DNA of 59,155 bases from Acidobacteriota bacterium (GTDB taxonomy: Bacteria; Acidobacteriota; Vicinamibacteria; Vicinamibacterales; 2-12-FULL-66-21): contig JBBWZJ010000208.1 of assembly GCA_039648985.1 (NCBI GenBank), positions 1-59,155 of the forward strand. The letters are read 5' to 3'. Numbering within the stretch: position 1 is the stretch's first letter; each line of letters begins with the position of its first letter. Made by a program: the position numbers and the translations under genes. Shown in pieces: positions 3,213 to 39,655 of this stretch. The notes beneath the pieces are model-generated. The model made no database searches. It was not told the origin of the DNA and saw only the letters and a list, made by a program, of their open reading frames with translations.

Positions 3213-3346
3213 AGGGCCTCCTGCGGCCGTTGATAACACGTCCGGCGCGGATGGCTGACACAATTCTTTCATCGCACGTCAGCCGCAGCTTTGCTATGTT
3301 CAGCCGCAATGGTTCGCTTTTCGGTATCCCGTTCTCGAGGGCTCTG

Positions 3347-4372
3347 ATGAACTTGAAATCGATCGTGGCGCTGATGGCGTGCGGCGCGGTGGCCCACCTC
3401 GCCGCCCAGGGCACTCCGGCGGGCTCTGTGCTCGTGCTCGCCAAGTCGGATCGGACGCTCTCGGTCGTGGACCCGGCCACGCTTCAGGTCACGGGCACGG
3501 CCCCCTCAGGTCCGGACCCGCACGAAGTGGTTGTCTCGACGGACGGTCGCGTCGCGTACATCTCGAACTACAACGGCGGCGCCAACATCGTGACGGTCAT
3601 CGACATGACGTCCATGAAGCCGCTTGCGCCCATCGACCTTGGCCCGCTGCGGGCGCCGCACGGTCTCGCGTTCGTCGGAGGCAAGCTGTGGTTCACGGCC
3701 GAAGCGGCGAAGGCCATCGGCAGCTATGACCCGGCCGCGGCCAAAGTCGACTGGGTGCTCGGCACCGGCCAGAACCGCACGCACATGATCTTCGTGTCGC
3801 CCGATCTCAAATGGATGGTGACCTCGAACGTGAGCTCCGCGACCATGACATACGTCGAAAAGACCGCGGGTGGCGCGGGACGAGGCGGCGGCGGACCCGG
3901 GCGGGGACCCGGCGGCCAGGGCGACTGGGAGGAGACCGTAATTCCCGTCGGACGCGGCGCGGAAGGGTTCGACGTTTCGCCCGATGCTAAGGAGCTCTGG
4001 GCGGCGAATGCTCAGGACGGCACAATCTCCGTAATCGATCTGGCGACCCGCCGAGTCACCCAGACGATCGCGGCGGGGGTGAACGGCGCGAACCGCCTCA
4101 AGTTCACGCCTGACGGCAAGCTGGTGCTCGTGTCCACCCTGAGCGGCCCCGATGTCTTCGTCTTCGACGCGAGCACCAGGAAGGAAGCCAGGCGGATCCC
4201 GGTCGGACATGGCGCGGCAGGCATCCAGATGCAACCCGACGGAGCCCGCGCATACGTCGCGTGCACGCCGGATGACTACGTGGCCGTGATCGACTTGAAG
4301 ACGTTGGCGGTGGCAGGGCGCATCGTGGCGGGCAAGCAGCCCGACGGCCTGGCGTGGATCGCACACCGCTGA
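3347..4372 (+). CDS. YncE/YVTN-type beta-propeller protein, secreted
   Basis: Signal peptide MNLKSIVAL...AAQ; repeated SPDG/TPDG and VIDL blades; GAGG RBS. Confidence 0.85.
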   Translation: MNLKSIVALMACGAVAHLAAQGTPAGSVLVLAKSDRTLSVVDPATLQVTGTAPSGPDPHEVVVSTDGRVAYISNYNGGANIVTVIDMTSMKPLAPIDLGPLRAPHGLAFVGGKLWFTAEAAKAIGSYDPAAAKVDWVLGTGQNRTHMIFVSPDLKWMVTSNVSSATMTYVEKTAGGAGRGGGGPGRGPGGQGDWEETVIPVGRGAEGFDVSPDAKELWAANAQDGTISVIDLATRRVTQTIAAGVNGANRLKFTPDGKLVLVSTLSGPDVFVFDASTRKEARRIPVGHGAAGIQMQPDGARAYVACTPDDYVAVIDLKTLAVAGRIVAGKQPDGLAWIAHR

Positions 4373-4409: not shown

Positions 4410-4721
4410 TCAGCGCTGATGCGCGAGGACGGTCAGCACGTGGAGCCAGGGTCCGACGGCAACGACCATGTACACAGTGGCGAGGCCGGCGATGACCCGA
4501 TGGTAACCAGCCTGGTAGAGAAACGTCGCGCAGCCGCATGCGACGAGCTTGGCGCCGAGGAGGGCTGGCCCGGGTCCGAGGATCGCGATCCAGGCCGCGA
4601 GCAGCGGGTTCCCCTCCGCCAGGGGTCCGAAGACCGCCACGGCCTGAAAGGTGATGAGTCCGTCCGCAAGCTGCAGGACGAGAAAAACCGCCAGCACGAG
4701 CCGCGTCGTCAGGTGCTTCAC
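4410..4721 (-). CDS. DUF5658-like small membrane protein
   Basis: Hydrophobic helices with LQLADGLIT and AEGNPLL motifs; GTG start inferred (track start 4790). Confidence 0.7.
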   Translation of the reverse strand: MKHLTTRLVLAVFLVLQLADGLITFQAVAVFGPLAEGNPLLAAWIAILGPGPALLGAKLVACGCATFLYQAGYHRVIAGLATVYMVVAVGPWLHVLTVLAHQR

Positions 4722-4763
4722 TCGCCGGGTCCCGTTCCGCGCGTCCGCATGCCTCAGCAGTAA

Positions 4764-4779
4764 AGCAATAGCTCGGCCC
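4764..4779 (-). promoter_or_regulatory. Candidate sigma54 promoter
   Basis: Minus strand GGGCCGAGCTATTGCT, GG-N10-GC, about 45 bp upstream of the DUF5658-like gene. Confidence 0.35.
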
Positions 4780-4934
4780 CCCATTTCCACCTGGTTTACG
4801 CCTGATTTCGAGGGAATCGCTCCGGATATCGCGCGACGGGAAGACTAAAGAACGCCGGGGCGACAACCGGAGGAAGCTGTGCAATACTGAATACACTCGC
4901 GCGTGCGGTGTGCCTTACCACCGGAGACTGCCAG

Positions 4935-5321
4935 ATGCATGGTCGGGTCCTGATCGTTGACGACGACGAGGCATGCCTGTCGGGCATGAAGCAGCTGGTC
5001 GAAATGGCCGGCCACGAGGCGGTCGCCGTCACCACGTTCGAGGAAGGCCGGCGAGTTCTGCGCCACGGCGCACCCGACATGCTGATAGCGGACGTCCGGC
5101 TGGGCTCCTTCAACGGCCTGCAACTCATCGCCACGAGCGCCTTGAACATCCCCGTCATCGTGATTAGCGGTTTCGACGACGTAGTGCTGCAGGCCGAGGC
5201 ACGGGCGATGGGCGCGGACTATCTCGTCAAGCCTGTCTCCCCCGCCATTCTGATGGAGCGAATCGAACAGAAGCTCGCCGAATACCGGCTGTCGGTCCCG
5301 CCACAGCGGCCGGTTGCCTGA
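4935..5321 (+). CDS. Single-domain response regulator (receiver)
   Basis: VLIVDDD, phosphoacceptor IADVRL, ISG, LVKP; GGAG RBS; no output domain. Confidence 0.9.
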   Translation: MHGRVLIVDDDEACLSGMKQLVEMAGHEAVAVTTFEEGRRVLRHGAPDMLIADVRLGSFNGLQLIATSALNIPVIVISGFDDVVLQAEARAMGADYLVKPVSPAILMERIEQKLAEYRLSVPPQRPVA

Positions 5322-5448
5322 TCCGCGACGGCCAGCCGAATTCTTCTTTCGTCCTTCCTCCGGGATCACGTAGCATCTTTCGAACGCCGTCGTTATTCAG
5401 ACAGAGGGGTACCCGCCGCGGACTCTCCGGCCAACCACTCCAGGAGCC

Positions 5449-5676
5449 ATGGAACTGCCGAAAACTGTGGAAGCGTGTCACGCGATGATCCAGGAACTGC
5501 TCGACGAGAACGCCTCGCTGCGGCAGTCGGGGGCCTCATTCGGGCGCTTGGCGGAACGGCTGAACTCGGAGCTCCAGGAGGAGCGCCGCAACGGCCGCGA
5601 GCGTCGCCTCGCCCGCCACGGCGAAGACCGGCGGGGCGACGCTCCCCCCGACCGGCAGGGCAGCGCGAGCCGCTGA
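5449..5676 (+). CDS. Small coiled-coil hypothetical protein
   Basis: AGGAG RBS; 75 aa; shares a 38-aa motif with the 9080 protein. Confidence 0.75.
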   Translation: MELPKTVEACHAMIQELLDENASLRQSGASFGRLAERLNSELQEERRNGRERRLARHGEDRRGDAPPDRQGSASR

Positions 5677-5714
5677 GGGCCGTACCTCATCGCCGGCCCG
5701 GCTCCCAGAGTCAC

Positions 5715-6530
5715 TCAACGCCGCGTGGCGGACCACGTGGACGCACGGCCACCCACCACCGTTCCCTGAATCGCATTCCCCGCGACGTGACCCGTGTACT
5801 TCGCGCCGCCCGCGGTGAATGTCATCTCGCTCCCCCGCATCGCTCCATCGGTTATCGGTGTCCCTCCGAGGGATCCCGAAAGCTTCTGGAACTGCTGCGT
5901 GAGCACCAGGTCCTGGTCCCCCACCCGCCACGTCCCCTCGACCTTTGCCGGCACGACCCAGAAGAGAGCGGTGCACCAGGTCGTGCACCCCTCGGTCACT
6001 GTGGCCGTCTCGTCGGGCTGCCAGTCGTCCATCGTGAACGAATTCGACACGATGCGCGTGCCGGGCGCGAGACCGAGCAGCGTCGGACGGAGCTTCAGGT
6101 TCAGCTGCGGCAGCAGGAACAGCGTGATGACCGTCGCCTTCGAGAAATCGCTCTCGAAGATGTCGGCCTTGACGAAGGTCGCCTTGTCAGCCACGTTCGC
6201 CGCGGCCGCATTGCGCCGGGCGAGCTCCACCATGTCGGGGTTGTATTCGATCCCGAGTGCGCGCACGCCGCGCCGCGCCGCGGTGATGACCGTCCGGCCG
6301 TCGCCCGACCCCAGATCGATCAGGTAGTCCTGCGGCGTGACCTTGGCCATGTCCAGCATCTTGTCGACGAGGGCCTGTGGCGTCGGCACCCACACGACAT
6401 CCTTGCCCGCCTGCCCCACTTTTGGTTCGAACGGCGCCTGCGGCGTCGCGGCCGCCTGCGCCCCGGCCGCAGCGGCGACGAGCCACATCGAGATCGTCAG
6501 TCCGGGCCATCGACTCACTCGTCCGATCAT
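5715..6530 (-). CDS. Class I SAM-dependent methyltransferase with signal peptide
   Basis: DLGSGDGR motif I, GIEYN, KADIF; N-terminal Sec-like signal ending AQA; GGAGG RBS. Confidence 0.88.
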   Translation of the reverse strand: MIGRVSRWPGLTISMWLVAAAAGAQAAATPQAPFEPKVGQAGKDVVWVPTPQALVDKMLDMAKVTPQDYLIDLGSGDGRTVITAARRGVRALGIEYNPDMVELARRNAAAANVADKATFVKADIFESDFSKATVITLFLLPQLNLKLRPTLLGLAPGTRIVSNSFTMDDWQPDETATVTEGCTTWCTALFWVVPAKVEGTWRVGDQDLVLTQQFQKLSGSLGGTPITDGAMRGSEMTFTAGGAKYTGHVAGNAIQGTVVGGRASTWSATRR

Positions 6531-6688
6531 GATTGCCTCCCGCGTGAGACACGCGCGACGTGTGACAGTGCGGCACTGCGAACGTGCTACGTTCTGGGCT
6601 CAGTCTACGGAGATCGGCGCCCAAAAGTCTAAAGCCGCCGGCCGCTGCGATCCGCCGGACTGCGCCGCTCCTGAAAGGACCCGCTGCC

Positions 6689-8245
6689 GTGAGACGACGA
6701 CGCTTTCTGAAGGAGACCGCCCGCGCGGCCGCGGCGCTCGCCGTAGCAGGCCCGCTCGGGCCCACGCGCACGGCACTGCGCATCGACGAGGCCGCGGACC
6801 CGTCGATTGCCGTCGACCCGACGCCGGCGTTCGAGCTGTCGCCGTACCTGTACATGCAGTTCATGGAGCCGCTGGGCGCCACGGACGGCTCCGTCGAAGC
6901 GGCGTGGGATCACCTTCGCGGTGCGTGGCGCGAGGACGTGCTCGACGTGACGCGCGATCTCGCGCCGACAATGATCCGGTGGGGCGGGATCTTTTCGGAT
7001 TACTACCGCTGGCGCGAGGGCGTGGGCCCGCGCGCCGCGCGGCAGCCGATGATCAACCTGCTCTGGGGCGGTATCGAGTCGAACCAGGTGGGCACGGGCG
7101 AGTTCGTCGACTTCTGCAGGGCCGCCGGAGCCGAGCCGCTGGTGTGTGTCAATTTCGAGTCGGACGGCCGGCGACAATACATGAACGCGGGCGGCAGCGT
7201 CCGCACGGCGGACGCCAGGGAAGCCGCCGGGTGGGTCGCCTACTGCAACGCCGCCGCGAGCCCCGAACGCGCCGCGCACGGTCGGGCCGCTCCGTTGAAC
7301 GTCAGGCACTGGCAGATCGGCAACGAAACGTCCTACGACCGGAACGGGTTCGACCTCGAGACAGCCGCCCTCAAGACCGTCGGGTTCGCGACGGCGATGC
7401 GGCAGGCCGATCCCGCACTCCGGCTGATCGCCTGGGGCGACAGCGGGTGGGCCGCACGGATGGCGGAGATCGCCGGCGAACACGTGCAGTATCTCGCGTT
7501 CCACCACATGTTCGATCCCGACGATCCGGCGCACCCCGTGCTCCGAGGCGAGCTGTACCGGCACGATCCTGACGCCACCTGGGCGCAGTTGATGAAGGCC
7601 TGGGAGATCACGGACGCGAAAATTCGCGGGATGCGCGACGCGCTCGGCGGCCGGTCCCTTCCGCTCGCGCTGACGGAGTGCCACTTCACGATCCCGGGAC
7701 GCCACCGTGGTGACGTCCTCTCGACCTGGGCGGCGGGCGTCTCATACGCCCGCATCCTCAACAACCATCAGCGGCACGGCGCCGTCCTGAAGATTGCCAC
7801 GGCGGCGGACTTCTGTGGAACCCGCTGGCAGAACAACGCCGTTATGATCCCGGTGCCGAGGGGAAACAACCGCGCGTACCTTCAGCCCGTCGCGCGCGTG
7901 ATGCGCCTGTACCGCGCGCACATGGGCAGCCACGCCGTCCGGGTCACCGCCGCACCAGACGCGCTCGACGTCGTCGCCAGCCGGCGCGACGACACGCTGT
8001 TTGTCCACGTGGCGAACACGCGGCGGACGGCGTCCGTGCGTGCCGCGCTGGCGGTGCAGAATCGGCAAATCAGGAGCGGCCGCGTGTTCCAAATCGCTGG
8101 CGACACGACCGAAGAAGTTTCGTATCTCAACAGCGGCGACGTGATGATCACGACCGAACGGGCGTTCGAACGAGGGGGCGCGTGGGAATTTCCTCCCGCC
8201 TCTGTGTCCGTCCTCGAGCTGCAGCTTTCGCCTGCCCTGCCCTGA
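6689..8245 (+). CDS. Alpha-L-arabinofuranosidase (GH51), Tat-exported
   Basis: RRRRFLK Tat motif; RWGG, WQIGNE (acid/base), LTEC (nucleophile); C-terminal FPPASV; AAAGGA RBS before the GTG. Confidence 0.85.
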   Translation: MRRRRFLKETARAAAALAVAGPLGPTRTALRIDEAADPSIAVDPTPAFELSPYLYMQFMEPLGATDGSVEAAWDHLRGAWREDVLDVTRDLAPTMIRWGGIFSDYYRWREGVGPRAARQPMINLLWGGIESNQVGTGEFVDFCRAAGAEPLVCVNFESDGRRQYMNAGGSVRTADAREAAGWVAYCNAAASPERAAHGRAAPLNVRHWQIGNETSYDRNGFDLETAALKTVGFATAMRQADPALRLIAWGDSGWAARMAEIAGEHVQYLAFHHMFDPDDPAHPVLRGELYRHDPDATWAQLMKAWEITDAKIRGMRDALGGRSLPLALTECHFTIPGRHRGDVLSTWAAGVSYARILNNHQRHGAVLKIATAADFCGTRWQNNAVMIPVPRGNNRAYLQPVARVMRLYRAHMGSHAVRVTAAPDALDVVASRRDDTLFVHVANTRRTASVRAALAVQNRQIRSGRVFQIAGDTTEEVSYLNSGDVMITTERAFERGGAWEFPPASVSVLELQLSPALP

Positions 8246-8357
8246 GATCGCGCGCGGCCTGCGCAATCGGCTACCATGTCGCGGGGCGGGAGCGGCCTGA
8301 GGCCGGTGCGCGCTTCCGCGGGGGCCCGGCGTCAACCTCCCCCCGATAATCCAGCAG

Positions 8358-8801
8358 GTGAAGTTCCGCATGACCGTCAACGAGGCTCCGCGCAAGCCGC
8401 CTGTCGTCCTGGTCGTGGACGACGAAACGGCGATCGTCAGTGCATTCACTGAGACGCTGCAGCTCGATGGCTACGAGACCGTGCCAGCGCTCAGCGCCGA
8501 AGCCGGGTTGCGCCTGCTGGACGACGGCTTGATGCCGGATGCCGTGCTGCTCGATCTGCGGATGCCCGGGATGGGCGGATTGGGATTTCTGCTGTCGCTG
8601 CGTGCGCACCCGGAGCGGCGCCAGATTCCCGTCGCGGTGGTCACGGCCGACACGCACCTCGACGACACGGCGCAGCAGGCCGTGCAGGCCCTCGGCGCGC
8701 AGCTGTGCTTCAAGCCGCTGACCATGCAGGACGTGCTGTCACTCGCGGCGGCGTTGATCGCTCCGAATCCCAGGTTCCAGAACCGCCGCGTCGTTCACTG
8801 A
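8358..8801 (+). CDS. Single-domain response regulator (receiver)
   Basis: VLVVDDE, LLDLRMPGMGG, VVTAD, FKP. Confidence 0.9.
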   Translation: MKFRMTVNEAPRKPPVVLVVDDETAIVSAFTETLQLDGYETVPALSAEAGLRLLDDGLMPDAVLLDLRMPGMGGLGFLLSLRAHPERRQIPVAVVTADTHLDDTAQQAVQALGAQLCFKPLTMQDVLSLAAALIAPNPRFQNRRVVH

Positions 8802-9049
8802 CGCGGCCCTGCGACGCTGCGTCCTCCTCACCCTCGCCGCCTGATGGCGGACTCGCGGAGCGGCTCGGGCGACCGATCTGCACGTCCCGCAACCCCGTCC
8901 CCACGACTCACCCGTAACGACAACAACGGACTCTAACGAACTTGCACATCGGTGTACGTTTGTCCCGTTTAGGAACATCCTTGCTCCGGTGGGAATTCGG
9001 CGGAACGCATAACGCGTGCGTTCTCACTCATTTGCGGACGTCTGTCAGC

Positions 9050-9065
9050 CGGACCGTTCCTTGCT
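9050..9065 (+). promoter_or_regulatory. Candidate sigma54 promoter
   Basis: CGGACCGTTCCTTGCT, GG-N10-GC; TCCTTGCTCCGG is repeated at 8978. Confidence 0.35.
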
Positions 9066-9079
9066 CCGGGGTGACCACC

Positions 9080-9559
9080 ATGTCGCTTCATGCATTCGGT
9101 GCTCACAGCGGAAGGAACGCCCAGGCGAAAGACGGTCGCGTGGAAGATCGCGACGGCCACGACGATCTGCCGTCGGGAGCCGCGGAACTCGCGGAACACC
9201 GCGCGTGCGTCGGGAGGATTCGCGAGCTCCGGGAAGAGAACGAGCTGCTCCGGAAGTCGGCGGACGAATTCGCTGCACTGGCGGAGCGGCTGCAGCGCGC
9301 CCTGGTGCGCGAGCGCGCGCGCGGCGGACGCGCCGGCACGAACGGGCATTTCCACGGGAGTGACGGGAATCGCATCCTGACGATCTCGATGCAGATCGAA
9401 GCGGAGTACCGGGCGATCCCGAACCTCCGGCTGACGCGATGGCAGGCCGCGCGTCTGTGGGATCTGAACCAGCAGGAGTGCGACGAAGCGATCGCGAGCC
9501 TCGTGAAGAACCGCGTGCTGCGCGAGACCCCGGGTGGTTTCGTCCGCCGCGACAAGTAA
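9080..9559 (+). CDS. Hypothetical protein: coiled-coil motif plus C-terminal winged-helix-like domain
   Basis: Motif shared with the 5449 ORF; C-terminal IEAEYRAIPNLRLTRWQAARLWDL...LVKNRVLRETPGGF; start uncertain. Confidence 0.75.
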   Translation: MSLHAFGAHSGRNAQAKDGRVEDRDGHDDLPSGAAELAEHRACVGRIRELREENELLRKSADEFAALAERLQRALVRERARGGRAGTNGHFHGSDGNRILTISMQIEAEYRAIPNLRLTRWQAARLWDLNQQECDEAIASLVKNRVLRETPGGFVRRDK

Positions 9560-9584
9560 GCCACGCGAGGACGCCGGGAACCGT

Positions 9585-10343
9585 ATGCCATTCGAAATCA
9601 GCGCCACCGACGAGCCGAAGACAATCCTGCTCCGTGCGTACGGCGCCGGGAATGCCGGTGAAGGACAGCGGGCACTGCAAGCGGTCCAGGCGCACGAGGC
9701 GCACAACCAGGGGATCGGCATCCTCATCGACGCCGTGGAGCTGGAATTTCGCCCCTCCGACGGCGAATCCCGCGTATTCGCCGGCCTGTTCGCGACAGCG
9801 TTTCCCTGTTCGCCAATCGCGATAATCGCGAAGTCCGGCCAGTGCTACGAATCCGCCGTGTGCATCACGACGCTCTCGGTCGACCGCGGCGCCAGAGTCG
9901 CCGCATTTACGGACCGGCACGAAGCGATCGCGTGGCTCGCAGCGTGCGCCCCGGCGGCGCCAATCGAGTTTCCCGAAAGCGGCCTGCTGTCGGACGCGAA
10001 ACTCATCCCGGAAGAAGTCGTCATCCCTTACGCGCTCCGCGAAAGAATCGAGACGACCCGCGTGGACGTGGACGGGCACGACTGCGCCCTGCGCCTCGAC
10101 TCCGCACAGGGACGTCCCGTGCTCGAGCCCGAGGTCGCGGAAGTGACAGTGAGCACGGAGTACCGAGGATCGGCCCGGCGTGCGACGGTCGACCTCCGGG
10201 TGAGCAGCCTGGACGACGAGGAATACGTGGTCTCGGCCGTCGTCAACGCCATGCGGGTCGTCCTGGCAGGTGCCCCGCCGCGCCGCGCACGCTACCGCAT
10301 CAGCTGCCCACCGTTGACTTCAATCGTCTCGCCGACGACATAG
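9585..10343 (+). CDS. Hypothetical protein with N-terminal SpoIIAA/STAS-like domain
   Basis: ILID, IAII, and terminal FTDRHEAIAWL pattern typical of SpoIIAA-like domains; extra C-terminal domain. Confidence 0.65.
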   Translation: MPFEISATDEPKTILLRAYGAGNAGEGQRALQAVQAHEAHNQGIGILIDAVELEFRPSDGESRVFAGLFATAFPCSPIAIIAKSGQCYESAVCITTLSVDRGARVAAFTDRHEAIAWLAACAPAAPIEFPESGLLSDAKLIPEEVVIPYALRERIETTRVDVDGHDCALRLDSAQGRPVLEPEVAEVTVSTEYRGSARRATVDLRVSSLDDEEYVVSAVVNAMRVVLAGAPPRRARYRISCPPLTSIVSPTT

Positions 10344-11059
10344 CCGGCCGCTCGCGACGCCAGGAACGCGATCACCGTCGCGCATTCGGCGGCGGTTCCC
10401 ACCCGGCCGAGCGGAATCGCGGACACGAACGCCCGCATCATCTCCGGTGTCGAAAATACTTCGTGGAACGGTGTGTCGATCACGCCCGGAGACACGGCAT
10501 TGACTCGAACGCCGTGCGGCGCGAGCTCTTTCGCCAGCGCCTTGGTGTACGACGTGAGCGCCGCCTTCGAGGCGGCATACGCCCCCGCCCCTGGTCCGCC
10601 CCCGTTATGGCCCGCGATCGAGACGACGTTGACGATCGCGCCGCGACGCCGCTCGATCATCGACTCGGCAACCGCCTGGGATGCGAACACCGCGCTCTTG
10701 AGATTCACCGCAAGAATGTCGTCGAGCTGCTCAGCGGTGATCTCGCGGATGCCGCGGCGCACGACGAGCGAGCCGGCGTTATTCACGAGGATGTCGATGG
10801 GTCCGAGCTCCGTCCGTACACGATCCACCAGCGACCGGATGTCGTCGCCGCTCCGGACATCGGCCGCTACCGTGATCGCCCGCCCTCCTGCGGCGCCGAT
10901 CGCGTCCCGCGTCGCCTCGGCCCCCTTCTGATTGCGATGGTACGCAAGCGCGACAGACGCACCCAGGTCCGCCAGGGTGGCGGCCGTCGCGGCCCCGATC
11001 CCGGACGACGCACCGGTGACGAGCGCGGTGCTGCCGGTGAGGTCGAGGTAATTGTGCAT
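10292..11059 (-). CDS. SDR family NAD(P)-dependent oxidoreductase
   Basis: TGASSGIG, NNAG, YAASK, VNAVSPG. Confidence 0.95.
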   Translation of the reverse strand: MHNYLDLTGSTALVTGASSGIGAATAATLADLGASVALAYHRNQKGAEATRDAIGAAGGRAITVAADVRSGDDIRSLVDRVRTELGPIDILVNNAGSLVVRRGIREITAEQLDDILAVNLKSAVFASQAVAESMIERRRGAIVNVVSIAGHNGGGPGAGAYAASKAALTSYTKALAKELAPHGVRVNAVSPGVIDTPFHEVFSTPEMMRAFVSAIPLGRVGTAAECATVIAFLASRAAGYVVGETIEVNGGQLMR

Positions 11060-18928: not shown

Positions 18929-21900
18929 TCACTTATTCACCGTCTCATCGAGATTGAAGATCACACTCGTCACTGTCGTCCAGGCTGCGAGCTCGACTGG
19001 ATCCAGCCTGGGGTTTCTGGGAGACTCGCCAACCGACACGAGCTGCAGCGCGGCCGGACGATCGGCCTTGAACGAGACGAGCCGCTGATCGAGGAGCGTG
19101 CGCAGCACCTTCGTTTCTTTTCCGCTCGGTTTGCGCGTCGTCGCCAGCCGGAACGCGTACGCCAGCCGGGCCTCCGGGTCGGCGCCGCCTTCGAGCAGAG
19201 CCCGCTGCGCGAGCGCGCGCGCCGCTTCGACGTACGTCGGATCGTTCATCAGCGCCAGCGCCTGGAGCGGCGTATTCGTCAGCGCACGGCGCGCCGTGCA
19301 CTTCTCCCGATTAGGGGCGTCGAATGTCGCGAGCGACGCCGGCGGGACGGTGCGCTTCCAGAGCGTATACATGCCGCGCCGGTACAGGTCGCGCCCGTGG
19401 CTCTGTTCGTACGCCTGGGCGGAAAAGCCGTCGCCGAAGGCCATCTCCTCCCAGAGCCCCTTCGGCTGATACGGCAGCACGCTCGGCCCGCCGATCTGAT
19501 CGTTCAACAGCCCGCTCGCCGCAAGCGCGGTGTCGCGGATCATCTCCGCAGGCAGGCGGTAGCGCGGTCCCCGGGCGAGCAGCCGGTTCTCCGGGTCTCG
19601 TTCGAGAAGCGCCGGCGTCACTTTCGGCGACTGGCGGTACGTGGCGGAGGTCACGATCAGGCGCTGCATCGCGCGGATGTCCCACCCGGTCCGCACGAAT
19701 TCGGTGGCCAGCCAGTCGAGCAGCTCCGGGTGCACGGGTGCCTCCCCCTGCACGCCGAAATCTTCCTGCGTCTTGACGATGCCGATGCCGAAGTACATCT
19801 GCCAGAACCGGTTGACCGCGACCCGCGACGTGAGCGGATGATCCAGCTGCACGAGCCACTTCGCCAGCGTGAGCCGGTTGAGCGGCGCGTTGTCGGGCAG
19901 GGGCGGCAGCATGGCCGGCACGCCGGGCTGCACTTTCTCCGTCTGATTCCGGTAGTCGCCGCGCGCGAGCACGAACGTGTCCCGCGGCTTCTTCATCTCC
20001 GCCATCACCATCGTCGTCGGAATGACGGCGTCCAGCTGCTCCTTCTGCCGGCGCAGCGCCTTGAGCTCGGTGTACACCGTGCGCAGCGTCGGCGGCGCGG
20101 CGTAGGTGAGGAAGTACTCGCGCACCTGTTCCGCTTCGTCTTTCGAGCGCTTGCCGTGGACGCCCGACACGATCACGCGGACGCTGTCGTGGATCGCGAG
20201 CTGCTCGATCTGCGCGGGCGTGAGCACCCGGTCATACAGACGGAGGTCATCGAGCTGGCCCGTGAACGGCACGCCCAGATCCTTGCTGCCAACCCGCAAG
20301 GGGGCATCCGTTTTCACGGCGCCGGCGAGCGTGTCGGTCACAATGTCCGTCTCGGACGGCTTGCCGTTGACGAAGATGCGCAGACCAGACGCCTTGCCGG
20401 AACCGTCGTACACCAGCGCGACGTGGTACCAGTCGCCAAGGCGCAGCCGCTCGCGGGTACGGACCTGGATCCGTTGCGAGGGCGCGGACGCGAGCGTGAC
20501 GGTGAGCCGCGCCGCCCAGCGCTGGATCCCGACGAGCGTGATGTCTTCGAACGCCCATTCGTAACCACGACGGTGCGTCCCGTCGTCCAGTTTCTGGAAG
20601 ACCGACATCGGCAGGTTGCCGCGGCCCTTCAACCAGACCGCCAGGCTGAACGGGTCCGTTCGATCGAATGCGCCGACGTTCCCGAAGCTGACCTGGGTAT
20701 CGCCGTCGAACGACACCGCTCGCCCGATTTGCCCGGGATCGAACGTCGGGTCGCCGGTCACGGTCCGCCCGTGCTGATATCGGCCGGAGATGTCCGAGAA
20801 GCTGCCGTCCAGCTCGTAGTGGGCGACGAGCCCCTCGCCCGACGGCGCCGCCCTCTCGGGCAGGGTGGCCTCCCACGCGGCCTGGAGCGGTGCGACGACG
20901 GGATCAGCCACCGCGGCCTCGCGGGTCCGGATCGCGGCCGTGAGCTCGTCGAGACGTGCCTGCTGCTCGGGCGTTGGCAGCTGGATATACGGCTGCGCGT
21001 TACCCGTCCGGCCGTCGAGCCCCAGCTCGGGGACGTTATTGAAGAAGGCGAAGAACTGGTAGAACTCCTTGTGCGTGATGGGGTCGTATTTGTGCGAGTG
21101 GCACCGCGCGCACCCCATCGTCAGCCCCATGAAGGCGCCCGATGTCGCCTCCACCCGGTCGATGACGTACTCCACCTGATATTCGTCGGCGATGGCCCCG
21201 CCTTCGAAGTTGATCATGTGATTGCGGTTGAAGCCTGAGGCCACCTTCTGATCGCGCGTGGCGTTCGGCAGCAGGTCGCCGGCGAGCTGCTCGATCGCGA
21301 ACTCGTCGTACGGCATGTTGCGGTTGAACGCGTCGATCACCCAGTCGCGCCAGGGCCACATGCCGCGCAGGCTGTCGATGTGATAGCCGTGCGTGTCCGC
21401 GTAGCGCGCCGCGTCGAGCCACGGCATGGCCATGCGCTCTCCGTACCGGGGCGACTGCAGCAGCGCATCCACCCGCTTCTCGTACGCATCCGGCGATCCA
21501 TCCGCGAGGAAGGAATCGATCGCCTCCGGCCCGGGCGGGAGTCCCGTCAGGTCGTACGTCACCCGCCGCAGCAGCGTCGTCTTGTCAGCTTCCGGAGAGG
21601 GCTTCAACCCCTCGCGCTCGAGCCGCGCGACGATGAATTGATCGATCGGGTTGCGCACCCAGCGCGCCTGCGCGGAGGTGACGACGGGCGGCTCGGGGCG
21701 CTTCGGGGGAATGAACGCCCAGTGCGTGTCCCACTTCGCGCCGTCGTCAATCCAGCGCCGCAGCAGGTCGATCTGCTTCGCCGTCAGCGTGTGGCCGGTC
21801 TCGGCCGGCGGCATCCGTTCGTCGGGATCGGGATTGGTGATCCGCTGGACGAGAAAACTGCCTTCCGCATTGCCCGGGACGATCACGCCCTTCTTGGCGA

Positions 21901-24012: not shown

Positions 24013-26379
24013 ATGAAGTCGTTCACGTCCACGCTGCCGACGTTGATGTCGCTGCCGCGCGCGGCGCGGGTCTATGTCGCCGCAGTCATCGGCGCGGGCG
24101 CCGGCTGCATGATCGCCGCGGCCATGCATCTGCGGTTCGAACACCCGTGGCTCTTCGGGGCGCTGCTCGCGCTTGGCGCGGCGACGTCCACCGCGAAGAT
24201 CGAACTGCCGCTTGGACGCAGCCAGTCGAACCTCTCGCTTTCCCACGCTGTGAACTTCTGGGCGCTGTTTGCGATCGGGTCCGCTCCGGCGGTCTGCATC
24301 GCGGCCGTGAGCGCGTGGGCACAGTGCACGTTCGGGCGGGGCGCGCGCAACCCGCTGCACCGAATCGTGTTCAGCATCGCTTCGCTGACGATCACGGTCT
24401 GGGTCGCCGGCATTCCGCTCGGGCTGCTCCTCGGCGCCGATCCCGCGAGCGCCGCCGCACTGGCGCGCGCCGCGGCCGTCGTCGGGCCGCTCTACTTCTT
24501 CGTCAACGCCTCGCTCGTGGCGGGCGCCATTGCGCTCTCGACGCGGGAGCCGCTGGGGCGAGTGTGGCGCCGCAATTTCCTCTGGAGCGCGCCGAGTTAT
24601 CTCGCCGGTGCCGCGCTCGCCGCCGTCGCGACCGCCGCGACCACACGGGGCGCATTCGGGTGGTTGATCCTGCTGGCGCTGCCCCTGTATCTCGTCTTCA
24701 GGAGCTATCACAGCGTTGTCGGACGCCTCCGCGAGGAGCAGGAGGAAACACGGCGGGCGATGGAAGTGCAGCTGGCAACCGTCGAGGCGCTGGCGCTCGC
24801 GATCGAGGCGAAGGCGGGATCCACACCCGAGCATATCCAGTCGATCCAGCAGTACGCGGCCCTGCTGGCCGAAGCCAGTGGTCTGTCGGATGTGGAAGTC
24901 CAGGGGGTGCGGACCGCCGCCCTGCTCCACGACATCGGCAACATGGCCGTACCGGAACACATCCTCGCCAAACCGACACCGCTCACACCGCAGGAGTTCG
25001 AACGGATCAAGAACCACCCGCGGGTCGGCGCCGAAATCCTGCGGAATGTGCCTTTCGGCGCGCCGGTTGCCGACATGGTGCTCTGCCATCACGAACGATG
25101 GGACGGCCTCGGCTACCCCGGCGGCCTCCGGGGCGCGGACATCCCGATCGGCGCGCGCATCCTCGCGATAGCGGATTGCTACAGCACGATGCAGTCGGAT
25201 CGCCCGTATCGGCGCGCCCGGACCGAGGGAGCGGCGATCGCGGCGCTGCGGGAACAAGCGGGTGCGGCGTTCGATCCGGCGCTCGTGGATCTCCTCATCG
25301 CGCGCGTGCATCGCTCGCAGGCAGCGCGCAGCGGGGACGAAACCGGGGAGGACACCTGGACGCAGGGCGAAGGCATGGTCGCGCTCCAGGACATCGCACA
25401 GACCCACCGGGAAGAGCAGATGCTCTATGAAATCGCGCAGGCGCTCGGATCGAGTCTCGGCGTCGCGGACGCGATGGCGCTCGTCGGAGAAAAGGTGCGC
25501 CGCCTGGTGCCGTTCGTGACCTGTGCGCTCTTTCTCGGCGACGACGCCGACGGATACGTCTGCCGCTATGCCCACGGACCCGGGACGGAGGCGCTGCTCA
25601 ACTGGGCGCCGCGATCGTGGAGCGAGATCGCGCTCAGCTTGCCGGCGTGCGCGGATGGCCGTGGGATTCACGGCGAGGAGTTGGCGGCGATGCTCCCCTG
25701 CCCGCTCACGTTCGACGGGGTGCTCATCGGCGGCATTGCGCTCTATCACACAGTCCCGGGGCATTTCACGGACGAGCACCGCCGGCTGCTGGCGCGGGTC
25801 AGCGAGCAGACCGCCGCCGTCATCTTCAATTCGACGCGGTTCGAGCAGACGCAGCACGAATCCCACACGGATCCGTTGACGGGCCTTGCGAACCGCCGGT
25901 CGCTCGATCGCCAGTTCGAGGCCGGGCTCGAGCGCGCCGCGCGCAACCAGGGAACCGTCAGCCTCGTTGTGCTGGACCTCGATCGCCTCAAGGAAATCAA
26001 CGACACGTACGGGCACGAAGCGGGCGACCGGGCGCTCCGCGCTGTCGGCACCGTTCTGGGATCGACCGTCGGCGAGGACGATTTGTGCGCGCGGTTCGCC
26101 GGCGACGAGTTCGTCGTGCTGCTGTGGGACAGCACGCCGGAGCAGGAAGCGCACCGGGTGCGGCAGCTGCAGAACGCGATCGCCGCGTACCCGTTCGAAC
26201 CGCGGCCGGGCGTGCGGGTCTCGCTGTCGATCAGCGCCGGCCCCGCGCGATTCCCGGTGGATGGCAGCACGTTCGAAGAACTGCTGGCCGCTGCGGACGA
26301 GCGGATGTATCACGACAAGGCGGGCCGCCGCTCCAGGAACTCGGGCCGCCATGCGGCGATCGTCCAGGAACGGGCATAG
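24013..26379 (+). CDS. Membrane HD-GYP / GAF / GGDEF c-di-GMP turnover protein
   Basis: Multi-TM N-terminus; LHDIG, HHERWDGLGYP; DPLTGLANR, DLDRLKEINDTYGH, RFAGDEF. Confidence 0.92.
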   Translation: MKSFTSTLPTLMSLPRAARVYVAAVIGAGAGCMIAAAMHLRFEHPWLFGALLALGAATSTAKIELPLGRSQSNLSLSHAVNFWALFAIGSAPAVCIAAVSAWAQCTFGRGARNPLHRIVFSIASLTITVWVAGIPLGLLLGADPASAAALARAAAVVGPLYFFVNASLVAGAIALSTREPLGRVWRRNFLWSAPSYLAGAALAAVATAATTRGAFGWLILLALPLYLVFRSYHSVVGRLREEQEETRRAMEVQLATVEALALAIEAKAGSTPEHIQSIQQYAALLAEASGLSDVEVQGVRTAALLHDIGNMAVPEHILAKPTPLTPQEFERIKNHPRVGAEILRNVPFGAPVADMVLCHHERWDGLGYPGGLRGADIPIGARILAIADCYSTMQSDRPYRRARTEGAAIAALREQAGAAFDPALVDLLIARVHRSQAARSGDETGEDTWTQGEGMVALQDIAQTHREEQMLYEIAQALGSSLGVADAMALVGEKVRRLVPFVTCALFLGDDADGYVCRYAHGPGTEALLNWAPRSWSEIALSLPACADGRGIHGEELAAMLPCPLTFDGVLIGGIALYHTVPGHFTDEHRRLLARVSEQTAAVIFNSTRFEQTQHESHTDPLTGLANRRSLDRQFEAGLERAARNQGTVSLVVLDLDRLKEINDTYGHEAGDRALRAVGTVLGSTVGEDDLCARFAGDEFVVLLWDSTPEQEAHRVRQLQNAIAAYPFEPRPGVRVSLSISAGPARFPVDGSTFEELLAAADERMYHDKAGRRSRNSGRHAAIVQERA

Positions 26380-37896: not shown

Positions 37897-39465
37897 TCAG
37901 GGCTTGAAGCGCTTCCAGTCGATTCCGAGCTTGCGCACTTTATAGTTCACGATCCGCTCCGTGGTGCGGAGCAGCCGGGCGGCCTTGGCGCGGTTGCCGC
38001 GGGCGCTCTTCAGAGCGTCCTGCAGCAGGTCCTTCTCGTACGCCGCCACCGCATCGTCGAGCGCGATGCTCATCACGGTGCCCGATGCCTCGGCGGTCTG
38101 CAGGGTCGGCGAGAGGTGGTGGGCGTGGATGACGTGCCCGTCGCAGACGAGCACCGCGCGTTCGATGACGTTCTGGAGCTCGCGCGCGTTGCCGGGCCAG
38201 TGATACGAGGTCAGCATGTCGATCGCCGGTGTGGCGAGCCGCCGGATGTCGCGGCCGTGCTCGGCTGAGTAGCGCTGGAGGAAGTGGTCGGCGAGCAGCA
38301 GCACGTCAGGCTTCCGCTCCCGCAGGGGCGGGATGAAGATCGGAAACACGTTGAGCCGGTAGAACAGATCTTCGCGGAAGGAGCCTTTTTCGATCGCCCG
38401 TTCGAGATCCTTGTTGGTCGCGGCGATCAGGCGGACGTCGGACTTGAGCGTCTCGTGCCCGCCGAGACGTTCGAACTCGCGCTCCTGGAGAACCCGCAGA
38501 AGCTTGACCTGCGTGGCGAGCTGCACATCGCCGATTTCGTCGAGAAACAGCGTGCCGCCCTCCGCCAGCTCGAAGCGCCCCTTCTTCCGCGCGTCCGCGC
38601 CCGTGAACGCCCCCTTCTCGTATCCGAACAGCTCGGATTCGATGAGCGTGTCGGGCAGCGCGCCGCAGCTCACTTTGACGAACGGCTTCTTCGCGCGTGA
38701 CGAGTTGTAGTGGATGGCGCTCGCGATGAGCTCCTTGCCCGTCCCGGACTCGCCGCGCAGCAGCACGGTGGTGTTCGTGCGCGCCACCTGCGCCACCTGC
38801 TCGTAGACGCGCTGCATCGGTCCGCTGTTGCCGACGATCCCGGCGAAGTCGTACCGCTCGCGGAGCTCCTGCTTCAGGTGCGCGTTCTCGTTGACCAGCC
38901 GTTTGTGCTGGGCGGCGACGAGCCGCTGCACCTTGAGCGCCTGGCCGATCGCGGAAGCCACCACGCTGTAGAAGGCCTTCGAACGTTCGTAGTTCCGGTC
39001 CGCCTTGAACTTGAGGCTGACGCCGAGCGCGCCGACCACGCGGCGATCGAACCCGATCGGCACGCAGATGAAGCTCGTCTCCTCCGCCTGCGCGTCTTCG
39101 CGGCCGTTGGCGCGCAGCACCAGCGAAGGTTCGCGGCTGACGCGCGTGACGATGACCGCCTTGCCGGTTTCGACGACCTTGCCGATGACGCCTTCGCCGA
39201 GGGTGTAGTGGATGTGGTGCGACGGCCGATTCAGCCCGTGCGCCGCCTCCACGTGCAGCTGGCGTCCCTCCTCGTCGAGGCGGACAATCAGGCTCTGCGC
39301 GATGGCGTGCCGCCGCGCGAGCGTCTCGAGCACTTCCTGCAGCGCGCTCTTGGTGTTGAGCGTGCTCGAGAGCGCGTCGGTGATCTGGAGCAGCGTGGCG
39401 AGCCGTTCCTGTTCGGTCGAGGGGCTGTCGGTCGGACTACTGCGTGCGGCAATCTTCGTGGTCAT
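37897..39465 (-). CDS. sigma54-dependent transcriptional activator (GAF-AAA+-Fis HTH, NifA-like architecture)
   Basis: GAF domain; GESGTGKE, GAFTGA, LFLDEIGD, WPGN, HTH; start inferred at MTTKIAA. Confidence 0.93.
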   Translation of the reverse strand: MTTKIAARSSPTDSPSTEQERLATLLQITDALSSTLNTKSALQEVLETLARRHAIAQSLIVRLDEEGRQLHVEAAHGLNRPSHHIHYTLGEGVIGKVVETGKAVIVTRVSREPSLVLRANGREDAQAEETSFICVPIGFDRRVVGALGVSLKFKADRNYERSKAFYSVVASAIGQALKVQRLVAAQHKRLVNENAHLKQELRERYDFAGIVGNSGPMQRVYEQVAQVARTNTTVLLRGESGTGKELIASAIHYNSSRAKKPFVKVSCGALPDTLIESELFGYEKGAFTGADARKKGRFELAEGGTLFLDEIGDVQLATQVKLLRVLQEREFERLGGHETLKSDVRLIAATNKDLERAIEKGSFREDLFYRLNVFPIFIPPLRERKPDVLLLADHFLQRYSAEHGRDIRRLATPAIDMLTSYHWPGNARELQNVIERAVLVCDGHVIHAHHLSPTLQTAEASGTVMSIALDDAVAAYEKDLLQDALKSARGNRAKAARLLRTTERIVNYKVRKLGIDWKRFKP

Positions 39466-39481
39466 CGAGGGTCGATCCGCC

Positions 39482-39655
39482 TGAACAAAATTGTCGCGCG
39501 CATGATCTTCGGCCACCCAATTCTCGCCCGCGCCCCGCCGCCGCGTCAACCGCGAACACCACATCGCAAGCACAAATCCGTGATTCTTCGCCGTGATCAT
39601 GCGTCCGCGCCAGACCTACTTGTCGCTCGACGCACGCGCAATGAACAAAATTGTC
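39482..39655. promoter_or_regulatory. Pair of identical 14-bp operator-like sites
   Basis: TGAACAAAATTGTC at 39482-39495 and 39642-39655; quasi-palindromic ACA-N4-TGT core. Confidence 0.55.

Follow-up and report, generated by a model that had tools for sequence, protein, structure and literature searches.

Many bacterial response regulators, a large share of the total, consist of a receiver alone, and most of these have no known downstream partner. What such receivers might act on is asked in concrete form by a gene cluster in a 59,155-nt stretch of DNA (the window), which is contig C124 of the 4.72-Mb, 67% GC genome of an uncultured member of the Acidobacteriota, a metagenome-assembled genome (MAG). 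Here, two receiver genes, RR1 and RR2, are each followed by the gene of a small protein with the same cysteine-containing motif, termed Z. The first of these proteins is Z1; in the second, ZF, the motif is joined to a predicted winged helix-turn-helix (wHTH) domain, and a further gene, X, follows. A preliminary description, made from the sequence alone, had proposed that the motif is a dimerization or receiver-docking zipper. Following the computational analysis described here, the favored reading is that Z is a parallel dimeric zipper which would dock a receiver beside its phosphorylation site, so that RR1 with Z1, and RR2 (or RR1) with ZF, would constitute two-piece response regulators in which ZF is the DNA-binding output and X its modulator. 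We give this reading about an even chance of being correct.

The ungapped match at 19 of 38 positions that had linked Z1 to ZF in the preliminary description is correct on direct count, and BLASTP aligns the pair with 20 of 41 positions identical, likewise ungapped (E 1e-7 for the pair). This match is not due to chance, because a profile of the core finds eight copies in the genome, two on C124 and one each on contigs C322, C26, C19, C130, C84, and C169, as well as 528 cluster representatives at E <= 1e-3 (140 at E <= 1e-10) in an exhaustive search of 1.84 billion proteins (cluster representatives). Among the 150 representatives listed, the median length is 82 aa and seven have at least 150 aa. 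Z1 itself has 33 other relatives of similar length (72–127 aa, 25 of them exactly 75 aa) with 67–89% identity. Within the genus, Z was found in 20 of 24 other genomes; none of 16 genomes that represent other families of the order yielded it. A wider draw of 151 genomes gave eight with Z, all from one family of Vicinamibacterales (five genera), and 139 genomes belonging to 18 other families gave none. Searching 185,579 species genomes for the exact nine-residue core gave 26 confirmed loci, all of them in Acidobacteriota or Vicinamibacterales MAGs. Pfam returned no match for Z1, ZF, or X, and searches of NCBIfam, PDB sequences, and the ESM Atlas with Z, the wHTH part, and X placed none of them in a family. 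When 13 Z members were compared with Pfam at E <= 1, the best match was ZapB (E 8.8e-4, in 2 of the 13) and the remainder were generic coiled coils, with no basic leucine zipper (bZIP), CheZ, CheX, HPt, or HisKA among them. The best NCBIfam hit was YabA at E 0.1, a profile search of the PDB gave nothing under E 0.02, and the ESM Atlas returned unnamed or generic helices only (scores <=0.87). The Z motif is a family without a relative in Pfam, NCBIfam, or the PDB, and full-text searches found no literature on it. A known generic family lacking any association with receivers, which the preliminary description had named as the outcome that would speak against it, is not what emerged: no curated family matches, and links to receivers are found.

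Conservation was counted over 150 diverse representatives (151 aligned stretches) and is given in Z1 numbering. Near-invariant residues are C10 (134/143), L17 (146/151), E20 (149/151), N21 (151/151), L24 (150/151), R25 (149/151), F31 (150/151), G32 (144/151), L34 (151/151), A35 (151/151), E36 (146/151), R37 (151/151), L38 (146/151), and R46 (135/144). Residues C10, L17, L24, F31, and L38 occupy d positions of a heptad repeat, V7, I14, N21, A35, and L42 occupy a positions, and E20(g) and R25(e) are spaced as a g-e' pair. This placement of conserved residues, together with an insert of exactly seven residues in the C84 copy which keeps the heptad register, bears out the earlier view of the motif as a zipper. 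AlphaFold2 (AF2) models residues 33–84 of ZF as a single helix, with a predicted local distance difference test score (pLDDT) above 90. By the rules established for coiled coils, Asn at an a position and g-e' pairs favor a parallel in-register dimer, and the heptad pattern of Z, with its Cys-d, Asn-a, and Glu-g/Arg-e, fits a parallel dimeric zipper. The two C10 residues of such a dimer would face each other and may serve as a disulfide or redox staple; some members from more distant genera have Tyr in place of this Cys or lack it. Furthermore, L34(g), E36(b), and R37(c) are conserved off the core, and the zipper core alone is therefore insufficient as an explanation of the conservation.

Most Z members also carry an Arg-rich (D/E)RR tail, which runs ERR, about three residues, (D/E)RR, about three residues, R, one or two residues, and DRR. 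Besides R46, the tail positions R52 (77/115) and R60 (75/81) are conserved among the representatives, and no known motif or ligand matched the tail. Z does not qualify as a bZIP protein, since this Arg-rich segment is C-terminal to the zipper and none of the 13 members matched a bZIP model of Pfam at E <= 1.

The association of Z with receivers takes several forms. As the preliminary description had noted, Z1 and ZF each lie directly downstream of, and co-oriented with, a stand-alone receiver: the gaps are 127 nt between RR1 and Z1 (5322–5448) and 278 nt between RR2 and ZF (8802–9079), and both receivers score well above the cut-off of Pfam Response_reg (PF00072, 30.2 bits; Table 1) and show no second Pfam domain. 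Genome-wide, three of the eight Z copies have a co-oriented receiver domain no more than about 450 bp upstream: RR1, RR2, and, on C84, the receiver at the C-terminus of a hybrid kinase. Given 95 receiver matches in 4.72 Mb, a rough binomial estimate puts the probability of this proximity at P = 5e-6. In addition, two of the seven long representatives among the 150 listed are natural receiver-Z fusions. One, P0136, consists of a receiver (Pfam, 67.1 bits) with a C-terminal Z, and the other, P0083, has the same architecture with a receiver of 29.5 bits, slightly below the cut-off. The receiver of P0136 shows the loop features of RR1 (M/F-N-G-I/L-E/Q-L and T/S-G-W/F). A metagenome scan with P0136 returned 80 loci with generic receivers at <=41% identity and no Z or wHTH match in any of them. 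Within the genus, Z and an RR1-like receiver occur together in 19 genomes, Z occurs without the receiver in one (64% complete), the receiver without Z in none, and neither in four (Fisher P 5e-4, related genomes not being independent).

How a receiver might be held by Z was addressed by modeling two Z1(1–60) chains together with RR1, each with its alignment, alongside three controls. The median of the interface score ipSAE was 0.69, against 0.00 for the best of the three controls; the ipSAE mark is reached by 116 of 157 solved complexes and by 2 of 215 mismatched pairs. The runs agreed in at least 97% of their contacts, and partner pLDDT was at least 86. Because the PDB holds no sequence relative of Z, the model is unlikely to be recalling a solved Z complex. 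On RR1, the modeled contacts are residues 35–36, 55, 57–63, 66–67, 79–80, 82, 84–85, and 88, which correspond to the loops after D53 and S78 and to helices 3 and 4. Among these, F59, N60, Q63, G79, F80, D82, V84, and L85 do not vary within the RR1 family, even in paralogues without an adjacent Z. On Z1, the contacts lie within residues 19–39, the most conserved stretch. One copy contributes mostly e and b positions (25, 29, 32, 36, and 39) and the other c, f, and g positions (19, 20, 23, 26, 27, 30, 33, 34, and 37), an arrangement which can be read as RR1 sitting in one groove of a parallel Z1 dimer. RR1 is thus predicted by the model to dock beside the phospho-Asp D53 onto the invariant zipper surface.

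An interface of this kind would also be expected if Z acted on the receiver, as a phosphatase helper of the CheZ or CheX kind, a phosphotransfer bundle, or an inhibitor of the active-site face. The modeled contacts do surround the phosphorylation site (RR1 55, 57–63, and 79–80), CheZ and Spo0B are helical bundles which dock on the active-site face of receivers, and E20 and N21 are nearly invariant in Z. However, N21 is a core a residue outside the modeled contacts, and a CheZ-like catalytic Asn was judged unlikely on these grounds. H11, which stands next to the Cys and is the sole candidate for a phosphotransfer His, was rejected as such because no more than 31 of 143 aligned representatives have it; its invariance is limited to the Z1 orthologues. 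Moreover, Z shows no Pfam match to CheZ, CheX, HPt, or HisKA, and an action on the receiver would leave the fusion and coupling of Z to wHTH domains unexplained. This explanation is considered improbable.

Both receivers have the residues expected of their fold. In the RR1-family alignment the pocket D9–D11, the phospho-acceptor D53, and K99 are invariant and S/T78 is kept, and RR2 carries the usual DD/D/T/K residues (DDE, the D of LLDLRMPG, the T of VVTAD, and the K of FKP, as read off the translation). The RR1 subfamily is further marked by an invariant loop, D53-V-R-L-G-x-F59-N60-G-L-Q63-L, and by an S/T-G-F-D/A-D segment. It has three members in the genome at >=58% identity. The two nearer paralogues of RR1 (58–61% identity; C193:11673–12119 and C33:6654–7106) belong to other signaling clusters and have no Z nearby. 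None of the 61 HATPase_c matches of the genome is on contig C124, so that both receivers are orphans, in agreement with the earlier statement that the window holds no kinase. The term "duplicated module" used in the preliminary description proved misleading: the two receivers share only about 32% identity, RR1 is more similar to paralogues at other loci than to RR2, and the motif belongs to a family of eight copies. The module is therefore not a recent duplicate, and a tandem duplication of a receiver-Z unit was rejected.

True RR1 orthologues (>=69% identity) are present in 10 of 26 genomes of the genus, and Z1 comes next in every case. In the fetched loci, all nine Z1-type genes have a co-oriented receiver 86–259 bp upstream; in G023 the distance is 48 bp, which brings the total to 10 of 10 genomes. 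Full-length ZF is confined to the same 10 of 26 genomes. One of these ten, G022, is unpublished, and the counts of 10 become 9 without it. X follows ZF directly in 9 of 9 other genomes, and an RR2 orthologue precedes ZF in 7 of 9. The order in G003 is contiguous, with propeller, RR1, Z1, RR2, ZF, and X following one another and no insert between Z1 and RR2. In G016, G017, and G022 this position is occupied by a methyltransferase gene alone, and in G020, G010, G011, and the source genome by a methyltransferase and a glycosidase gene. The two halves form one cluster, variably interrupted. The start codons at 4935, 9080, and 9585 are consistent with the orthologue alignments, and no conserved element was found in the RR1-Z1 spacer across eight genomes. 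The interval 5715–8245 resembles a local insertion hot spot within a regulatory cluster.

The second zipper protein, ZF, for which 58 homologues were found, carries the putative output domain. AF2 models its residues 94–156 with helices at 94–112, 120–126, and 131–143 and strands at 147–150 and 153–156 (pLDDT about 90). The top Foldseek rows for this part are winged helices of GntR, CRP, IclR, and SelB proteins, with probability 1.00 and a root-mean-square deviation (rmsd) of 2.5–2.9 Å over about 65 columns at E values of only 0.016–0.06; the best row is 6za7_B (E 0.016, probability 1.00, rmsd 2.7 Å over 66 columns). Neither Pfam nor NCBIfam has a matching model. At the level of the predicted fold, the earlier SpoIIAA-like call for X holds, and the wHTH-like call for ZF probably does. 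The small winged-helix domain has four copies in the genome. On C130 it has a gene of its own, with a 4-nt overlap at the Z stop codon, an arrangement kept in L061, and G110, from another genus, encodes it 340 nt upstream of Z. Taken together, the fused, coupled, and adjacent arrangements speak for Z and the wHTH domain working as one unit. Stand-alone copies of the domain are found at C309:21568–21846 and C7:19985–20230, the former about 800 bp downstream of a histidine kinase gene (HATPase_c 20472–20783) and 2 kb from a receiver.

Upstream of ZF, the block 8917–8994 is conserved in nine genomes and contains an imperfect palindrome (Table 1) whose columns TGT..C.TT...G.ACA are invariant in 9 of 9 genomes. 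The palindrome occurs once in the window, where 0.01 occurrences are expected. A conserved TCCTTGCT lies about 15 nt before the ZF start codon, and the motif recurs 80 nt earlier in the source genome. It is part of a 17-nt direct repeat (8978–8994 and 9058–9074), the second copy of which, with TCCTTGCT, ends 5 nt before the ATG. From its sequence, the 5' block of ZF could combine an operator with a translation or leader element.

Set against this evidence are several results which weaken the case for two-piece response regulators built on Z. No receiver lies within 1.5–2.5 kb of 49 of 59 Z matches (loci L027–L082), and the 10 that have a co-oriented receiver <=700 bp upstream all represent one orthologous locus. 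Other Z genes have other neighbors: the C26 type follows a gene for a sigma factor of the extracytoplasmic function (ECF) group (Pfam Sigma70_ECF, 194.8 bits), an order also seen in L057 and L059, the C19 type is flanked by a major facilitator superfamily (MFS) transporter and a Gfo/Idh/MocA oxidoreductase (11 loci), and the C130 type follows a CRP-type regulator. Across the order, Z and an RR1-like receiver occur together in 6 genomes, Z only in 2, the receiver only in 6, and neither in 137. Two genomes of high completeness, G016 (100%) and G017 (98%), keep ZF and X with no RR2 orthologue found, their best matches being of 44–48% identity and located elsewhere. RR2, as read from its translation, has M, G, and G at the positions of the RR1 contacts F59, N60, and Q63, so that an RR1-like docking should not be assumed for RR2 and ZF. 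Among genomes the RR1-Z1 spacer, which has 127 nt in the window, ranges from 48 to 259 bp and shows poor conservation, the RR2-ZF spacer measures 278 nt, and the receivers and zipper genes are possibly transcribed separately. Three chains with shallow alignments of our own making lie outside the calibration of the modeling tool, and the complex is a model rather than a measurement. Finally, the C-terminal part of ZF gave no Foldseek match at E <= 0.001, its best wHTH matches standing at E 0.016–0.06. The proposal that the motif is a receiver-docking element is thus upheld in part: conserved adjacency, receiver-Z fusions, and the controlled complex model speak for it, and the 49 of 59 copies without a nearby receiver do not.

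The same distribution would be expected if Z were a general small coiled coil with a structural role or a partner outside two-component signaling, its adjacency to receivers being one clade's inherited gene order and the fusions accidental. Besides the many copies far from any receiver, the single orthologous locus behind the 10 positives, the non-independence of related genomes, the imperfect co-occurrence at the level of the order, and the purely generic coiled coils among the resemblances found are all in keeping with it. Conversely, the receiver links are several and independent (RR1-Z1, RR2-ZF, the hybrid kinase receiver on C84, and two fusions), the model separates clearly from its controls and places the contacts on the invariant surface, and the presence of N21, L34, A35, and R37 in every aligned stretch indicates a specific conserved partner. 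A general coiled coil is accordingly judged a distinctly unlikely account.

Z1 and ZF, encoded in the same 10 genomes, could also be related by titration. Z1 would then be a zipper-only decoy which heterodimerizes with ZF and takes it off DNA, like a dominant-negative bZIP or helix-loop-helix (HLH) protein, with the receivers setting the choice of dimer. The two proteins have all core a and d residues and the E-g/R-e pair in common, making mixed dimers sterically plausible, and by our reading a ZF homodimer puts R46(g) opposite R51(e'), where Z1 has M and L. However, the same core recurs in eight paralogues, which casts doubt on specificity, and a pure decoy has no need of a tail as strongly conserved at R46 and R60 as that of Z. 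The invariant and exposed E36 and R37 and the receiver-Z fusions would likewise remain without explanation, and such a titration appears rather unlikely.

The gene after ZF encodes a protein whose N-terminal fold was recognized from a predicted structure. AF2 models X with a mean pLDDT of 84.6, and residues 1–122 match the STAS fold of an anti-sigma-factor antagonist, 4qtp_A (VIA Z 12.3, rmsd 2.3 Å over 106 residues), as well as RsbS (Z 11.2) and SpoIIAA (Z 10.5). In Foldseek the best E value is 2.3e-3, with a TM score of 0.72 normalized by target, and no Pfam match was obtained at E <= 0.1. S58 stands at the start of helix 2, a position which we take to correspond to the phospho-Ser of SpoIIAA, and is S or T in most, although not all, of 32 orthologues. 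For the conserved C-terminal domain (145–230) no fold matched, the search lists being filled by STAS proteins and the Atlas giving TM scores <=0.60. The last 20 or so residues of X differ from those of all orthologues, and the gene overlaps a convergent short-chain dehydrogenase/reductase (SDR) gene (10292–11059) by 52 nt. The X orthologue of G010 (L114, G010:C7, 1992–2748) is in three pieces in three frames, reflecting either frameshifts in a nine-contig assembly or a broken gene.

The STAS fold recalls partner switching, and Z could in principle be an anti-sigma-like element which binds a sigma factor or X and receives its input from the receivers, like NepR in the PhyR-NepR-EcfG system. The single observation that would point to partner switching is the predicted STAS fold of X, with its Ser or Thr at the start of helix 2 in most orthologues; for an anti-sigma role there is in addition the C26-type Z just downstream of its ECF sigma gene. 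Yet only one of the eight paralogues adjoins a sigma gene, and the two are 1.8 kb apart in L058 and L060. Moreover, there is no SpoIIAB-type kinase on contig C124, no PP2C phosphatase was seen among the open reading frames of the window scanned against Pfam, and neither RR1 nor RR2 has a sigma-like domain in Pfam. This alternative is regarded as highly improbable.

Under the favored reading of two-piece response regulators, kinases encoded elsewhere would phosphorylate the orphan receivers RR1 and RR2, and each receiver would then bind a zipper dimer bearing its output on a separate polypeptide, in a manner that may depend on phosphorylation. The docking site would be the exposed invariant surface of Z, formed by F31, L34, E36, R37, and their neighbors. 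The output of Z1 would be its conserved Arg-rich (D/E)RR tail, and that of ZF the winged helix, a putative DNA-binding domain which would be held dimeric by the zipper and would probably act at the palindrome upstream of its own gene. X would be co-transcribed with ZF, from which it is separated by 25 nt, and would probably modulate it. A broader scheme, more speculative and in our judgment fairly unlikely, treats Z as a portable receiver-docking plug. A few receivers of the RR1 type, with the D-V-R-L-G-x-F-N-G-L-Q-L loop, would address eight zipper-tagged outputs by combinatorial assembly in trans, instead of through fixed domain fusions, and Cys-d would act as a disulfide or redox gate on the dimer that merges redox and phosphorylation inputs. 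The tagged outputs could include basic (D/E)RR tails, the fused or coupled winged helix, and other C-termini.

A two-piece regulator of this kind has partial counterparts among known systems. It resembles regulators of the OmpR/PhoB type in that a phospho-receiver would control a dimeric winged-helix output, and the natural fusions show that the pieces belong together. Here, however, receiver and wHTH are encoded as two polypeptides which the modeled zipper would connect, and it is the zipper rather than the receiver that would dimerize; the wHTH of ZF also resembles the GntR type in fold searches and lacks a Pfam model. With single-domain response regulators that work through protein partners, here PhyR-NepR-EcfG and RssB with its Ira anti-adaptors, the proposed system has in common a small helical protein that binds a response regulator and alters its output. 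NepR binds the sigma-like domain of PhyR. IraD docks on the receiver domain of RssB, and IraP, with a predicted N-terminal coiled coil, binds mainly its C-terminal domain (PMC4428439). Unlike NepR and the Ira proteins, to which it has no sequence relationship, Z carries its own output domains.

As in GCN4-type bZIP proteins and zipper-only dominant negatives, canonical heptads, Asn-a, a Glu(g)-Arg(e') pair, and an adjoining basic segment are found in Z. However, the basic tail is C-terminal rather than N-terminal, the family is bacterial and lineage-restricted, and an invariant exposed face is modeled on a receiver. A helical dimer contacting the loops around the phospho-Asp is, in the model, shared with CheZ, Spo0B, and the dimerization and histidine phosphotransfer (DHp) domains of kinases, although Z lacks a conserved His and an accessible catalytic Gln or Asn. 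Kinase-receiver contacts are dominated by helix alpha-1 and the beta5-alpha5 loop, whereas both elements of RR1 are absent from the modeled contacts. X, for its part, has in its N-terminal domain the STAS fold of SpoIIAA, RsbV, and RsbS, and differs from them by an extra conserved C-terminal domain, by the missing Pfam STAS match at E <= 0.1, and by the lack of a kinase on the contig.

The cluster offers a concrete and testable partner family for stand-alone receivers, with a sharp signature, natural fusions, and a modeled interface with named residues. If the two-piece reading is true, receiver and output can be made as separate polypeptides which a dedicated zipper assembles into a response regulator, and a first handle would be gained on signaling in Vicinamibacterales, a group of soil Acidobacteria that is abundant but has hardly been studied. 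These findings have limited reach: the family was found in a single family of one order, and the evidence is computational throughout.

Table 1. Features of the receiver-zipper cluster and adjoining genes, with positions in the window.
Feature	Position	Strand	Remarks
YncE-like beta-propeller	3230..4372	+	Pfam YNCE, 58 bits; N-terminus resembles a signal peptide
RR1, stand-alone receiver, 128 aa	4935..5321	+	Pfam Response_reg, 63.8 bits
Z1, zipper protein, 75 aa	5449..5676	+	Core C10–R47 (nt 5476–5589); Arg-rich (D/E)RR-repeat tail (nt 5581–5673)
S-adenosylmethionine (SAM) methyltransferase	5715–6530	-	Pfam; insertion, outside the system
Arabinofuranosidase-like glycosidase	6584–8245	+	Pfam; insertion, outside the system
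RR2, stand-alone receiver, 147 aa	8358..8801	+	Pfam Response_reg, 63.2 bits
Imperfect palindrome TGTCCCGTTTAGGAACA, candidate operator	8961..8977	+	Conserved in the ZF 5' region
ZF, 159 aa	9080..9559	+	Disordered N-terminus; zipper core C43–R79 (nt 9206–9316); linker; predicted winged helix 94–156 (nt 9359–9547)
X, 252 aa	9585..10343	+	STAS/SpoIIAA-fold domain 1–122 (nt 9585–9950); C-terminal alpha/beta domain 145–230 (nt 10017–10274)

The propeller gene precedes RR1 in 8 of 9 RR1-Z1 loci, the ninth (L031) showing a fragment match only, and is probably context rather than a component of the system. Between it and RR1 lies a gene for a DUF5658-like membrane protein (4410–4790, minus strand; 23.4 bits, below the cut-off of 25.2), which is without a counterpart at the same place in G003. 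A promoter scan of 4700–10500 gave no sigma-70-like sites, and the terminator-like sites in this interval all lie on the minus strand, at a frequency no higher than in shuffled sequences. The GC content at third codon positions of the cluster genes (0.78–0.86; 0.85 for Z1) matches that of their neighbors. Other signaling genes in the window encode a protein with HD-GYP, GAF, and GGDEF domains (24013–26376) and a GAF-containing sigma-54 activator (37900–39600).

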